DNA of 64,000 bases from a virus: positions 32,001 through 96,000 of the IMG/VR virus record IMGVR_UViG_3300037140_000126; one strand, given 5' to 3'. The number at the start of each line of letters is the position of its first letter. Position 1 is the stretch's first letter. The position numbers and the translations under genes were made by a program. Positions 48,779 through 56,940 of the stretch are shown here, piece after piece. The notes under the pieces were generated by a model. That model worked only from the letters and a program-made list of their open reading frames with translations. It was not told where the DNA came from and did no database searches.

Positions 48779-49113
48779 GGTGTTACCGCCGTTTCTGTCA
48801 GTTTGACCGCTGGTATGAATCCAGTTAGTGATTGTGTGGTATAGGCAAGTGTGACACTGTTGGGCGCGTTCACCGTGACGGTAATCTGGGCAGGGTTAAG
48901 ATGCAAACCCGGTGCGGCTGCCGATACGTAGGCCACAGGATTGCACCCTGCCTTGGCGTTACAAATGGCTGCCTCGGTCGTAATATAGTCAAGGTTGGAC
49001 TTCTGATTTTCTAGCCAGAGCAAGTCAGCACCCGCTAGGGCAAGAAAAAGGAAAATAGGCAGAATTAACGCAAATTCAATTAGTGCCTGCCCACGTTGCC
49101 GATTAGTCTTCAT
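48775..49113 (-). CDS. TadE/TadG-like pseudopilin
   Basis: MKTNRQRG/QALIEFALILPIFLFLALAG: prepilin peptidase site, Glu+5 and a hydrophobic helix; GGAGG RBS. Confidence 0.85.
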   Translation of the reverse strand: MKTNRQRGQALIEFALILPIFLFLALAGADLLWLENQKSNLDYITTEAAICNAKAGCNPVAYVSAAAPGLHLNPAQITVTVNAPNSVTLAYTTQSLTGFIPAVKLTETAVTP

Positions 49114-50089
49114 CGAACGATACCTCCCGCGAAGGTTTGAGCACAACGAGCGTGTCGAGCGTGCTCTTGATCGTCTCAAACGACGCACGCATTGTGTTAC
49201 GTGCCCGTTCGTCTTCCCGCAGCACATCCGGATTGACACCCTTAACAAGAGCATTCGCCTTGTCTACGAGTGCTTTCAGTTCAGCGTCACCTTGAATGTT
49301 CCGGGGATTGAATGTCCCAATCCATTCACTGACATTTGCAACGGCCGAATCCCGAATCACTTTTTTCTTGCCGTCTTTCGAGGGCGACAACCGTTCGACA
49401 AGGTGGCCAACAACTTCTGAGAACTCTTTGCGCAAAAGTTGCTGCCAGACTTCACGTGCAGCGTCCCATGACTTTGCGGCCTTCGCCTGCTCCTGCTGAT
49501 AGACATCCCGGCTAACCTGTTCGAGACTCACAGGAACGTCGAAGCTGATATAGCGCCAAGTGATTCCAAACGCGGAGGTCAGTCCATCCTTGGTCGGATA
49601 GTCGGACTCCGTGAACAACTTCCCGAGCCTGGTTTTTGACTCCTGCAACATCTCGTCGTATTCACCAACGAATTGCTCAACGAGTTGCTTGTGCTCGACT
49701 GTGAACTCGATGAGCCGCTTATTGACAACATCCACGTTGTCGGTCGGAATGAGATACACGCTATCTTTTAGCAGTGACGGTAGTGCATGGGAGCGGACAT
49801 ATGCTTGAGCACGATACCCGACACCTCTAATCTTACCGAGGCTATCGGAAGCAACCAGCTTTTTCGTGACGCCAATCCAGCGAGGATCGGCTTCGACTTT
49901 TACATTGCTCGTGCTGATCTTGCGTTGGTTGCCCAGCACATGCACGTCCAAGGACAGAGCAATCACTTTGCCCAGCATCTCTTTTGTGCTGACTGGTTGT
50001 GGCTGCTGGACTGTAACGGTCTTGTGGATGTGACGTTTTGTTGCTGTGTGTTTTACTGCCAATGCTTTCTTCTGAGCCTTCGCTGCCAT
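49103..50089 (-). CDS. DUF3150-like protein
   Basis: HALPSLLKDSVYLIP...FVGEY...YP...F.ITW...FN pattern recalled from DUF3150-type phage proteins; has its own promoter. Confidence 0.55.
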   Translation of the reverse strand: MAAKAQKKALAVKHTATKRHIHKTVTVQQPQPVSTKEMLGKVIALSLDVHVLGNQRKISTSNVKVEADPRWIGVTKKLVASDSLGKIRGVGYRAQAYVRSHALPSLLKDSVYLIPTDNVDVVNKRLIEFTVEHKQLVEQFVGEYDEMLQESKTRLGKLFTESDYPTKDGLTSAFGITWRYISFDVPVSLEQVSRDVYQQEQAKAAKSWDAAREVWQQLLRKEFSEVVGHLVERLSPSKDGKKKVIRDSAVANVSEWIGTFNPRNIQGDAELKALVDKANALVKGVNPDVLREDERARNTMRASFETIKSTLDTLVVLKPSREVSFDED

Positions 50090-50160: not shown

Positions 50161-50427
50161 CTAAACCTCGGAGAACAGATTTTCTTCGAGCCATTGACGT
50201 TCTGTGGCGAGCGCATCTTCCCGCAGTCTGTAAGGGCCAAGCACAGGCCCATTCACGGGCGCGAGGTCTGCCGTCCAACCCTTGCCACTAGGCTCGACGT
50301 AGCTTACACGGCGCGTTACGGCTTCACCGTGCTCGCACAGGTCGGCGAGCTTGTCATCGTAGATGAACGAAAGACTACCGTCCGGCCGTATAGCGATTGA
50401 GAATTGTTCTTGTTTGTTCGGATTCAT
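50161..50427 (-). CDS. Conserved hypothetical protein, usually found next to DUF2997/DUF1257
   Basis: IRPDG...YVEP...WTADLAPVNGPVLGPY..R..AL..E..WL; start at MNPNK after GGAGG. Confidence 0.6.
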   Translation of the reverse strand: MNPNKQEQFSIAIRPDGSLSFIYDDKLADLCEHGEAVTRRVSYVEPSGKGWTADLAPVNGPVLGPYRLREDALATERQWLEENLFSEV

Positions 50428-50584
50428 ATGCCTCCTTCGTAGCTTGACTGTGCCCAACTTCTCCGAGCGCCGCTTCAAGCCCTTTCGTCAGCGCTTTGCA
50501 GGCCTTTCCTTTGACACCCTTGACGGAGACTTTCACTTCCCCATCTGGTGCAATCGTCACTGTGATCTCTTCACTCATTTTCAT
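50375..50584 (-). CDS. DUF2997-family protein
   Basis: ITVTIAPDGEVKVSVKGVKGKAC.ALT..LEAALG. Confidence 0.78.
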   Translation of the reverse strand: MKMSEEITVTIAPDGEVKVSVKGVKGKACKALTKGLEAALGEVGHSQATKEAYESEQTRTILNRYTAGR

Positions 50585-51030
50585 TACCCCCTAACTGCTT
50601 TAACAACGAGAGTGCCATCCGGACGCTTGTACTGCGCGATGCGGAAACCGTCACGCTGGAACTTGGCCATTTCTTTCTTTGCGACTTGCACGGCATAGCC
50701 TTGCTTCAGTTTCTCGCCGCTCTTACCGATAGCTTCTTGGAGCCCGTAGCCGCCTTGCCAGAAGTCCCAAAGCATTTGATAGCCAGTGCCTGTCTTGCTC
50801 TTGACAACACCGACCTCGTACGCTCGCGGATTACCCTTAATGCGCATGGCGTAGTCACATTTGCCCATGTCCGCTTTCGTGAAACCGGCAGGCAGCGGAT
50901 AATCACCGACATGCGTGCCGTACCACTTGAACGTTGATTGCTCGACCAGTTCCATACCGAGTGCTTCGGCCGCAAGCTTCAATGCGTTGAGGTCCCTGAC
51001 TACCAATTTCAAATCGGTCACATGCGACAT
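50584..51030 (-). CDS. DUF1257-family protein
   Basis: MSHVT...VRDLNALKLAAEALG...Y.MLWDFW...LKQGYA. Confidence 0.75.
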   Translation of the reverse strand: MSHVTDLKLVVRDLNALKLAAEALGMELVEQSTFKWYGTHVGDYPLPAGFTKADMGKCDYAMRIKGNPRAYEVGVVKSKTGTGYQMLWDFWQGGYGLQEAIGKSGEKLKQGYAVQVAKKEMAKFQRDGFRIAQYKRPDGTLVVKAVRG

Positions 51031-51513: not shown

Positions 51514-51852
51514 TCAGTCCTCCTCAAGGCAGATTTCTCTTCGTGTCTGAATCACAAGCATCTGTCCAGTCTGTGCAACAACCTTTGCGACAGGCAACAC
51601 AGTTTTCTTGTCAAGGTAGCGGGCGCGTTGATTATTCGCCATTACTTGCACAGGCACACCACCTATGATCGGAACTTCCTCAACCTTCCGAATGTGCAAA
51701 ATATGTTTGCACATTGGTTTCGGGTTTCTAGCAAACTTATGGGCCGGGCAGTCACAAGCCCATCGTCCAGTCTTCGCCACGCTGACTGTATACGTCTTGT
51801 CAGTAGTAAACGAAGTCACTTTCCACTGTGCTGCCCACTGAGCGCCCATCAC
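51514..51852 (-). CDS. SWIM zinc-finger protein
   Basis: YTVS...WACDCPAH...CKHI. Confidence 0.8.
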   Translation of the reverse strand: MMGAQWAAQWKVTSFTTDKTYTVSVAKTGRWACDCPAHKFARNPKPMCKHILHIRKVEEVPIIGGVPVQVMANNQRARYLDKKTVLPVAKVVAQTGQMLVIQTRREICLEED

Positions 51853-52033: not shown

Positions 52034-53605
52034 CTAGTTGACCTCCCTCTTGATGCTGCGTGACTGCTGAAGCACGGGCGGCTGATTTGACGGAAGCTTA
52101 TACTTGCCAGGGTAGCTTGCGGCAATGAACTTCCCGGCAGCAAACTCACGCAGCCGTTGTATCTGATCTTTCGCAGACTGAGCGACAGGAACAACGTACT
52201 CGGCAGCTTCCACGAGGCTGATCCCGTAGTCCCAGGCCATCTCGGTGCACTGTTCGATTTCCGCCCCTGTCCATCCTTCATCGTCCGGACGCTTCTTGTC
52301 GGTCAGATTATATTTCTTCGTGAAAAACTGCCATGCCCCGTCACGCTCTTCTTTTGACATCAGGTCCATAAAGAACGTGCCACGCTTGAAACGCCTTCTC
52401 AATTCAGGAGGCAGGCTGTCCACGTTATTGCAAGTCGCAACAACGAAAATCGTTTTGCCGCCAGCCACAGCATCCACCATTTTCAGGAACGAGCGGAGAT
52501 TCTTGCCCGACTCGCCGACAATACCGGCCTCCATTCCACCAATATCACCCACGATAGTCGGAACTCCAGCTTCGTTTCCAATTGCCTTTGCTAAGAGGGA
52601 CTTCCCTGTTCCGGGAGGCCCGAGCAGCAATATGCCAATTGCGTTGTGATCCTGCATCCAGGTCAAGAAAGTGCCAAACATCTTCTGGCTGACTCCAGAC
52701 AAATCGCCTTGCAGGCCGGCAAACATCTTCTCGATTTCGTCCAGAAACAGGACGCACGAGATTTCCCGCTTGCCGTTGATAACCATACGGACGTACTTGA
52801 CGACGTTCGACAGTCCGCAGATATTGGAAAACTTCTCCGCTCCGCGCCAGACACTTGCACCAACAGTCTGCTCGATTGTCTGCCGCTTGCGTTCCCACAA
52901 CCCTTCAACGTCGATACCGTCCTTCTTGAGTGAGATAAATGCTACCTGCTCGGCGGGATATGCGGCAAGTCCGCACAGCGCATCGGAGCATTTTTCCAGT
53001 ACATCGGCTTTGGGTTTGTCGAGCTTCGCATCATTGTAGACGCGTGTGATGATTTCTTTCAATTGTTCGCGGTCAGGGTAGGGCTCATCCAGCAAAAGCA
53101 CATCCTGGGCGAGTGCGGCGGGCAGGGTAATATCCGGAGCGAGCAGAACGACGCTGCGCCGGTTCGCTTTGAAGTTGTCACGCAGGTTGCAAATCGCTTG
53201 CGCGACAACAGGCTGCTCCATGTAGCGGTCAGCGTTCAGCATGAAGAGAATCGACAAACGCGGCAGCTTCACAGCACGCACAAGGGCGTCCACTGGGCTA
53301 GACAACGATTCGGACAGAAGTTGATACAGGTCGCCAACTTTCTCACCCGACTGGATACGCTCTTGCATCTGTGAAATTTCTACAGCAGAGAACAAATCGT
53401 GTAAGGCATCTTGGCCCTTATCGTTCACACCGAGCACGCCTCGGACGATATCGTGACACAGGATCGGTGGCACTTCTTTCGTCTCGGCGTACGCTTGCAT
53501 GACTGTGCCCATCGTTGCGGCAGGGTCGGGTGTGCGAATCGCCATCAGGCTAGTGCTAACTCGTCTTGCTGCCTTAAAAGTTTCCAGAAAACTTTGCTGA
53601 GCCAT
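52034..53605 (-). CDS. Ycf46-like AAA+ ATPase with permuted Walker B / Walker A order
   Basis: Ycf46-type N-domain, then CVLFLDEIEK...FGTFLTWMQD, then GPPGTGKS...VGES, then FVVATCN..DSLPPEL. Confidence 0.88.
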   Translation of the reverse strand: MAQQSFLETFKAARRVSTSLMAIRTPDPAATMGTVMQAYAETKEVPPILCHDIVRGVLGVNDKGQDALHDLFSAVEISQMQERIQSGEKVGDLYQLLSESLSSPVDALVRAVKLPRLSILFMLNADRYMEQPVVAQAICNLRDNFKANRRSVVLLAPDITLPAALAQDVLLLDEPYPDREQLKEIITRVYNDAKLDKPKADVLEKCSDALCGLAAYPAEQVAFISLKKDGIDVEGLWERKRQTIEQTVGASVWRGAEKFSNICGLSNVVKYVRMVINGKREISCVLFLDEIEKMFAGLQGDLSGVSQKMFGTFLTWMQDHNAIGILLLGPPGTGKSLLAKAIGNEAGVPTIVGDIGGMEAGIVGESGKNLRSFLKMVDAVAGGKTIFVVATCNNVDSLPPELRRRFKRGTFFMDLMSKEERDGAWQFFTKKYNLTDKKRPDDEGWTGAEIEQCTEMAWDYGISLVEAAEYVVPVAQSAKDQIQRLREFAAGKFIAASYPGKYKLPSNQPPVLQQSRSIKREVN

Positions 53606-54480: not shown

Positions 54481-56328
54481 TTAATTTGCTTCGCCGGGAG
54501 CTTCGTTTTCGCCCTCTTGCCTGTCATAAGAAGAATACTCTGAAAGCATCTCTGGATCGAGGTTCCCGAGATTCGCGTGTCTCGCAAAAAATGCGACTGC
54601 GCGGCACATTACTGTGTCATCTTTTGAATTGTCGTCATCCCCGCCACCCTGAGGTTTTCCATCCTTAAGACGCCTCGTAAACCTCATGGCTTCTTCGATA
54701 AAGGTAAAGTCATAAAAACGCTCGGGGTACTCTTCGACAAATGCACGCAATAGACCGAGCGAAACAGGCCGGGTTTTAGTCGTCATCGGAAGACCCGGAA
54801 CCTCCTGGTCTTTCTTTTGATTCATACCAACAGAACGGGCACGGAACTTGTCTTTGTGCTTGTAAATATTCCAGTAGCGCTGTTCTTCCAAACGATAGAG
54901 CACAACGCCGCCATCACCACCCGTGCCTCGCTCTACGGCAATCATCGCCATGTTGTACTGCACACCCATTTCTATCAAGTCGTCTGCAAAATCCTCGGGT
55001 GGCATACGCCCACGAATCGCTGCGACTTCTTCACCTGTTTCTTCGTCGAGCACAACAGCGGCAGAATAATCAGGATCATCAGTTGCAACTTGCCTGCCCG
55101 TAGCAGTATCCGCACCGATTACATATTTCTTCCCCTTGACACGGCGTTTGAATATTTTTATCTGCCCGTCGCGCTTCGTCACGATAGGTTCGTAACCTTG
55201 CAGCTCAACATACCGATAACGCAGAATATCACGGTCAAAGTACGATCTACCAGATACAAGAAACGCTGAAATATCATCCTCAGGGTATTTCTCGTCGAAG
55301 TTGTAACGCAGTGAAATCTTCTTGATGCGCCGAAAGCCGACTTGCCCCAGAGTAAGATGCACCCGGTCCTTAAGAGTTTTTTCTTCTGCCGTCAGTGGGT
55401 CCTGCTCGAAATCTACATCCAAATCACTCATGCGGTAGAGTTTGTTGCGAACATGCTCGGCGCTGTACTCTTTGTGCCACCACCAAGGATGGAAAAAATA
55501 CATGAACTCGGAAGTTTTATTCTGTGGATCGCGGGCCCGTATGCATTCTTCATAAAAAGTGCCGCCTGCACCGTTCGCAGTCGATTCAATATCAAGCGTT
55601 CCATCGTCGGGAATCGCTTCCTTGGCGTTTGCCAGAGTTTCCTCGGGATTGCCAGGCCAGCGGGCATACTCGGTGCAGACCAAATGATTCAATGTGAGCC
55701 CTTGTCCAACCTCATCCTGCTCTGCTGAATCCACCAAGATTTTCGAGTCAAGCTGATCGAAGACCAACTCTCGGCGGTTGCTCGCTACTGTGTGCAGCAA
55801 GTTCGCATGATACTCACGGGTCACTACGCTTGCATCCCAGTCATAAGGATTCGGCGTCCCGAAATAGCGATGCGTGCGCTTCAGGATTGCAAAGTGCTGT
55901 GCTGCGTAAAAATGATTCTGTGAGATAAGCAGGCAACCTGAACCAGGTTCTGTAATCGCGGGAAGATAAAGCCTGCGAATAATCTTGTCTGTTGTGTACC
56001 CACCTTGTCTGTACTTGAGGCAGATATTACGCTTCTTCTCCCGGTTCACCATGTCACGCTGCACATCGTTCAGCATAAACGGAACGAGACGGCGGTTCCA
56101 GAAGCCTTCGGGGAGCGGAACTTGGTCTTTACCAGGTTCTTTCTTAATGAGAATCCAGAAAAAATACTTGCAGAACTCCTCTTGGCCGAGGACGCGCAGC
56201 ATCATCTGTAGGGATTCAAGCTGGTCTTTAACGATTGCTGGATCGGGGCCTGTGCGGGTTTTTAGCGTGTTGACCCAACTAAAACCAAATCCCGGAATAG
56301 TTGTCGAAATGGGCGGCTGCGTGGCCAC
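54481..56328 (-). CDS. terL: Terminase large subunit
   Basis: LKYRQGGYTT Walker A, HLVCTE Walker B, IESTANG, FFHPWW, nuclease YVIGADTATG...DYS and DDTVMC. Confidence 0.93.
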   Translation of the reverse strand: MATQPPISTTIPGFGFSWVNTLKTRTGPDPAIVKDQLESLQMMLRVLGQEEFCKYFFWILIKKEPGKDQVPLPEGFWNRRLVPFMLNDVQRDMVNREKKRNICLKYRQGGYTTDKIIRRLYLPAITEPGSGCLLISQNHFYAAQHFAILKRTHRYFGTPNPYDWDASVVTREYHANLLHTVASNRRELVFDQLDSKILVDSAEQDEVGQGLTLNHLVCTEYARWPGNPEETLANAKEAIPDDGTLDIESTANGAGGTFYEECIRARDPQNKTSEFMYFFHPWWWHKEYSAEHVRNKLYRMSDLDVDFEQDPLTAEEKTLKDRVHLTLGQVGFRRIKKISLRYNFDEKYPEDDISAFLVSGRSYFDRDILRYRYVELQGYEPIVTKRDGQIKIFKRRVKGKKYVIGADTATGRQVATDDPDYSAAVVLDEETGEEVAAIRGRMPPEDFADDLIEMGVQYNMAMIAVERGTGGDGGVVLYRLEEQRYWNIYKHKDKFRARSVGMNQKKDQEVPGLPMTTKTRPVSLGLLRAFVEEYPERFYDFTFIEEAMRFTRRLKDGKPQGGGDDDNSKDDTVMCRAVAFFARHANLGNLDPEMLSEYSSYDRQEGENEAPGEAN

Positions 56329-56331
56329 AGG

Positions 56332-56940
56332 TTAGCGGCCTGAGGTCGTACGGCTGTAGATTACTTTTGGCACGAGGTCAAACTTTTCTTGTATCATTTC
56401 GGCAATAAGTCCATATCTGCTATCGCCCAGTCCGGCTTCCAGTTGAGACACTAGTTGCATCAGCTGTTCTTTCAACCAACCTTTTTCCCGATAGTGCAGC
56501 ACGGCAACCGCATCATCTTCTTTGATAAGCCGGTACTCACGCTCGTCGAGAAAACTATCAGGCAGCCCGACATGATGTGGCATAACGATATGATCGCCAA
56601 CTTTGATGTCACACTCGTTGAAGACCGAAATGTCGAAGCGCTTGCCGTCTTCGGAAACCTTGTCTACTTTTTCCCAATACGGCTTATACACGGCAAGCAC
56701 GACCGCTTCGATGTTCGGCTTGTTCTGCTTCTCTGGCATCAGAACACCGCCTGCTGTAACAGTCGAGCGTGGCAGCGTTCTGACAAGAATGAACGGTTTC
56801 AAGGGCTGCAGCCAGCGCTCGGTGTCCGCATACATGCGCTCCACTAGATCGGTCATTTCTCTTTTTGACTTCGCCTCAACGGCGCGTGCATCCCCACTTA
56901 CCACAATACCACTACCAAGGCGTGAGCCTATGCTTGCCAT
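56332..56940 (-). CDS. groES: Co-chaperonin GroES/Cpn10-like protein with terminal extensions
   Basis: LQPLKPFILVR...TAGGVLMPE...AVVLAV...IKVGDHIV...YRLIKEDDAVA. Confidence 0.85.
   Translation of the reverse strand: MASIGSRLGSGIVVSGDARAVEAKSKREMTDLVERMYADTERWLQPLKPFILVRTLPRSTVTAGGVLMPEKQNKPNIEAVVLAVYKPYWEKVDKVSEDGKRFDISVFNECDIKVGDHIVMPHHVGLPDSFLDEREYRLIKEDDAVAVLHYREKGWLKEQLMQLVSQLEAGLGDSRYGLIAEMIQEKFDLVPKVIYSRTTSGR

Follow-up and report, generated by a model that had tools for sequence, protein, structure and literature searches.

The window analysed here, a stretch of 64,000 nucleotides, corresponds to bases 32001-96000 of a virus record of 124,954 bases (IMGVR_UViG_3300037140_000126) that is rated 100% complete and contains a single copy of the gene in question. 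An uninterrupted ORF at 52034-53605 on the minus strand encodes a 523-aa, two-domain Ycf46-like AAA ATPase. Its first domain (D1, aa 1-245; 52871-53605, minus strand) is a degenerate AAA-like domain in normal strand order and without a P-loop. In the AlphaFold2 model its secondary structure is beta-alpha-beta plus a lid. Residues 246-279 (52769-52870, minus strand) form the N-linker and helix alpha0 (266-276, within which lies GLSNVVKY) of the second domain, D2. In D2, however, alpha0 leads into the Walker B strand rather than into strand 1. Block B (aa 280-321; 52643-52768, minus strand) comprises strand beta3 with the Walker B motif (VLFLDEIEK, aa 284-292, including D289 and E290), the pore-loop-2 region and helix alpha3, with GTFLTWMQD, to aa 319. 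Only then comes block A (aa 322-381; 52463-52642, minus strand), with strand beta1, Walker A (GPPGTGKS, aa 329-336, including K335), alpha1, beta2, pore loop 1 (IVG, 362-364, within GIVGES, aa 361-366) and alpha2. Block C (aa 382-415; 52361-52462, minus strand) carries strand beta4 (385-392) with sensor 1 (FVVATCN, N393), helix alpha4 with the Arg fingers (LPPELRRRF, R403-R405) and strand beta5, and is followed by a small alpha-helical lid domain (aa 416-500; 52106-52360, minus strand; helices 418-489) with GAEI at the sensor-2 position (447-450).

The neighbouring genes form a conserved module. Downstream on the same strand lie a DUF1257-like gene (50584-51030; 148 aa; PF06868, E 5e-4, just under the cut-off), a DUF2997 gene (50375-50584; 69 aa; PF11211, E 1.8e-17) and a gene for a 328-aa protein with weak DUF3150 likeness (49103-50089; PF11348, E 7e-4, below the cut-off). 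Across 58 loci encoding relatives of the ATPase, a clear DUF1257 gene lies directly downstream in 36, a DUF2997-like 64-aa gene follows in 35, and a homologue of the 328-aa protein, of about 330 aa, lies about 1.5 kb downstream in 50, making it the most constant neighbour. Its homologue in the isolated podovirus Tunturiibacter phage Tunturi_3, gp96, is annotated ‘HNH endonuclease’, which no Pfam hit supports. A 201-aa radical-SAM/Fer4_12 gene is present in 42 of the 58 loci but absent from the window, and SSB, Sipho_Gp157 and DUF6908 genes lie nearby in some loci. DUF2997 is also found next to the Tunturi_3 relative of the ATPase, gp103. Elsewhere in the window, a 112-aa protein (51514-51852, minus strand) carries a C-x-C...C-x-H pattern typical of SWIM zinc fingers, although Pfam gave no hit at E 0.01 (a weak SWIM hit was recorded for a small gene near another family member), and a 202-aa protein with a Cpn10/GroES domain (56332-56940, minus strand; E 1.7e-9) lies next to a 615-aa protein (54481-56328) with weak terminase large-subunit likeness.

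An earlier note, made from the sequence alone, had inferred that two adjacent blocks of the AAA domain were swapped so that Walker B precedes Walker A, that all catalytic motifs were intact and that the fold could be preserved, and knew of no described AAA+ family with this order. Our analysis confirms the observation, with the block boundaries given in the note correct to within a few codons, and supports its interpretation. The exchange is demonstrated by homology and not only by the position of motifs. In a sequence search of the PDB with phmmer, aa 323-381 aligned to Cdc48 522-580 and aa 284-323 to Cdc48 582-624, that is, to adjacent parts of a normal AAA domain in the opposite order. BLASTP against Rhodobacter phage RcTiptonus gp60 (QXN72530.1), a normal-order relative, aligned aa 284-321 to its residues 365-405 (61% identity) and aa 324-437 to its residues 306-465, with a gap exactly where its Walker B block lies. 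A profile HMM built from 100 RcTiptonus-like proteins hit the native protein in four out-of-order fragments (profile positions 12-196 to aa 3-196, 367-407 to aa 283-321, 309-366 to aa 324-381 and 411-554 to aa 384-510), whereas after the two blocks were exchanged in silico D2 gave one continuous hit of 157 bits over profile positions 308-554. PF00004 likewise passes its cut-off (76.8 bits against 21.2), but only as three fragments. The event is thus an exact exchange of two neighbouring segments, A-B-C to B-A-C, and since both ends of the domain stay in place it is a non-circular permutation.

The same order is found across a large family. A word-indexed search gave more than 2000 homologues at 45-70% identity, with 93-100% coverage in one local alignment, and an exhaustive search of 50%-identity cluster representatives gave 8354 hits, 1194 of them at E<=1e-30, the best 150 of which aligned colinearly, most in a single stretch. 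When the three blocks were mapped by BLAST, 120/120 near homologues and 143/149 cluster representatives were B-A-C; the other six have A directly followed by C, with the B block too diverged to detect. A few normal-order members suggested by motif patterns proved in this mapping to be an artefact of the patterns. All 120 RcTiptonus-like proteins were A-B. Tunturi_3 gp103, annotated only as ‘ATPase’ and not discussed in the paper on that phage, is colinear with the window protein at 36.6% identity. In GTDB genomes at least 333 places encode a relative, mostly in MAGs of Acidobacteriota (Terriglobia, Bryobacterales), Armatimonadota, Nitrospirales, Myxococcota and Planctomycetota, and some of these lie inside megabase-size contigs and so are probably prophages. 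We looked for proteins carrying the B or A block twice, as might be expected of duplication intermediates, and found none among 389 family and sister sequences.

Several lines of evidence suggest that the fold has been kept. AlphaFold2 gave confident models of the whole protein (72-sequence alignment; pLDDT 92.8, pTM 0.85) and of D2 alone (aa 246-523, 90 sequences; pLDDT 94.8, pTM 0.89); in the whole-protein model the moved segment is predicted to form a strand (282-288) and a helix (305-319) in blocks of mean pLDDT 82-97. The whole model aligned over both domains with p97, Cdc48 and AFG2 at Z about 18. D2 alone, searched against 48,161 representative PDB chains, found classical AAA domains first: spastin (Z 16.3, rmsd 2.6 Å, 198 residues aligned), NVL, Vps4, Rix7 and FtsH. 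About 190-208 of about 250 residues aligned, and the shortfall is about the 42 residues of the moved block, as expected if the aligner keeps chain order. It should be noted that AlphaFold2 may lean towards the familiar AAA fold, and that the position of the moved strand in the sheet rests on covariation and topological reasoning rather than on model coordinates. Covariation was computed from 339 sequences (Meff 224 for 255 columns), a low depth for this method, and clade structure inflates some pairs, so that we treat it as support and not as proof. Nevertheless, of the ten possible strand pairs, the four that are neighbours in the canonical 5-1-4-3-2 sheet scored best (1-5 at rank 29, 1-4 at rank 75, 3-2 at rank 90 and 3-4 at rank 96, out of 31,125 residue pairs, against ranks 160-1315 for the other six), which happens by chance once in 210. 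The strongest coupling in the domain, C284-A381, joins the first residue of the Walker B strand to the last residue of alpha2; these are direct chain neighbours in normal AAA proteins but are 97 residues apart here. I262 and L265 of the N-linker region also covary with G334 of the P-loop.

The predicted active site appears to be under selection. Across the 339 sequences E290, K335, N393 and G364 are invariant, R405 is present in 338, D289 in 334 and R404 in 318. The second-strongest coupling is between R404 (52394-52396) and A448 (52262-52264), the latter at the sensor-2 position of the lid, and in the 21 sequences that lack R404 residue 448 is Arg. We read this as relocation of one phosphate-contacting arginine between the trans (finger) and cis (sensor 2) sides of a shared site, which would imply an inter-subunit active site. 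Position 334 (52604-52606), before the Walker A lysine, is Gly in the window protein but Ala in most relatives (GPPGAAKS; A 190, G 113, S 23). This counts against activity, although GxPGxAK[ST] is probably the normal Walker A of the active MoxR/RavA group. Inteins, with a LAGLIDADG or HNH homing endonuclease or as mini-inteins, interrupt three family members, one in the P-loop (about aa 333) and two just after sensor 1 (about aa 398), and normal-order relatives of about 850 aa also carry intein domains.

The closest normal-order relatives are the Ycf46-like AAA ATPases of phages typified by RcTiptonus gp60. They share with the window protein the layout of a degenerate N-terminal domain and a C-terminal AAA domain, the TW(M)Q helix and the LPPE...R motif, and RcTiptonus gp60 likewise has a DUF2997 gene (gp63) downstream; they differ in the order of the two blocks. 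The best PHROGs hit, phrog_8638 (‘unknown function’), matched only in four stretches and, given its similar profile length, may represent this group. The type II classical AAA ATPases p97/Cdc48, NVL/Rix7 and AFG2 and the single-domain proteins spastin, Vps4, katanin and FtsH are the best structural matches (Z about 18 over D1+D2 and 14-16 over D2) and share Walker A and B, the sensor 1 Asn, two SRH arginines and Gly-Ala at the sensor-2 position. Solved examples have the normal chain order, however, and D1 of the window protein has no P-loop, and pore loop 1 of D2 lacks the aromatic residue. A natural, non-circular rewiring of a conserved phage protein fold is known for the HK97 capsid fold in Bordetella phage BPP-1 (PMC3863775), a structural protein of unrelated fold with no catalytic motifs. 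Within the literature searched we found no description of an AAA ATPase with this order; the ‘permuted’ of a jumbo-phage survey refers to methylases. No NCBIfam model reached its cut-off, and no solved chain stood out as sharing the connectivity among the PDB representatives searched.

Taken together, these data make it likely that the gene belongs to a large phage and prophage lineage of two-domain, Ycf46-like classical AAA ATPases in which one ancestral event moved the beta3/Walker B/alpha3 segment from behind alpha2 to in front of beta1 in D2. Only three loop connections change (alpha0 to beta3, alpha3 to beta1 and alpha2 to beta4), each landing one or two strands from the old one on the same edge of the sheet and keeping the direction of travel across it. 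From this topology we infer, with support from covariation, that the 5-1-4-3-2 parallel sheet, its right-handed crossovers and the positions of the helices can stay as they were. The domain most likely still binds and hydrolyses ATP at a site shared between neighbouring subunits of a ring, with the Arg finger acting in trans, although this is inferred from sequence and models alone. The permuted lineage appears to have kept the module of its normal-order relatives, and probably the ancestral job. Our best reading is an ATP-driven ring remodeller acting on a protein or protein-DNA substrate in the early or replication-recombination module, together with the DUF1257, DUF2997 and 330-aa proteins, although the link to DUF1257 and DUF2997 is one of gene neighbourhood only.

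Of the alternatives, the one that survives best, though we consider it unlikely, is that the fold is kept but the protein is an ATP-binding switch or non-threading remodeller rather than a ring-shaped unfoldase. The absence of an aromatic residue from pore loop 1 (L/I-V-G), which means that classical substrate threading is not assured, and the Ala before the Walker A lysine in most members would fit this view. On the other hand, the closest structures are ring-forming classical AAA proteins, the two-tier D1+D2 layout matches p97/Cdc48/NVL, and the arginine swap between position 404 and the sensor-2 position is most easily read as a shared site between subunits; a prediction of three D2 copies with three ATP gave no answer (score 0.25 against a mark of 0.42) and counts neither way. 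Less probable still is that the upstream Walker B segment is a remnant of a lost AAA domain that packs elsewhere or serves as a linker, leaving D2 a four-stranded, catalytically dead scaffold. Domain decay has happened in this lineage, as D1 shows, and duplication followed by differential loss is a plausible route to the present order, but D289 and E290 are kept together with K335, N393 and R405, covariation places the moved strand next to beta4 and beta2 and next to the end of alpha2, the segment is modelled with confidence as a strand and helix, and inteins in the P-loop suggest a functionally important site. Misassembly is in practice refuted, since the identical protein lies on 16 contigs of up to about 125 kb from at least three sources (ENA, Logan and JGI assemblies) and all 263 mappable homologues, at 36-70% identity and including that of a fully sequenced isolated phage, have the same order.

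The chain order Walker A, Walker B, sensor 1, Arg finger appears to be treated as a constant of AAA+ proteins, and profile models depend on it. Here those models fragment, and Pfam hits on relatives are recorded as weak or faint, so that a widespread phage protein family is systematically under-annotated. The finding also marks a conserved but uncharacterized phage module, two of whose families, DUF1257 (ycf35) and DUF2997, also cluster together in cyanobacterial genomes (PMC4284462). More likely than not, in our view, this is a natural, ancient and very successful permutation of the catalytic core of an AAA+ motor, with strand order 3-1-2-4-5 instead of 1-2-3-4-5 and the three-dimensional site unchanged, in more than a thousand sequence clusters of soil phages and prophages. 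If so, it would show that the AAA+ core tolerates rewiring of its central strands, and the occurrence of permuted and normal-order proteins in the same gene module would offer a natural pair for testing how chain connectivity affects folding, ring assembly and force transmission from the Walker B/pore-loop-2 segment. The swap gives protein engineers a natural template. A viable internal segment swap in the core sheet bears, finally, on which connections are dispensable for folding and mechanics and on how P-loop folds evolve, for example by duplication of a sub-segment followed by loss at each end.
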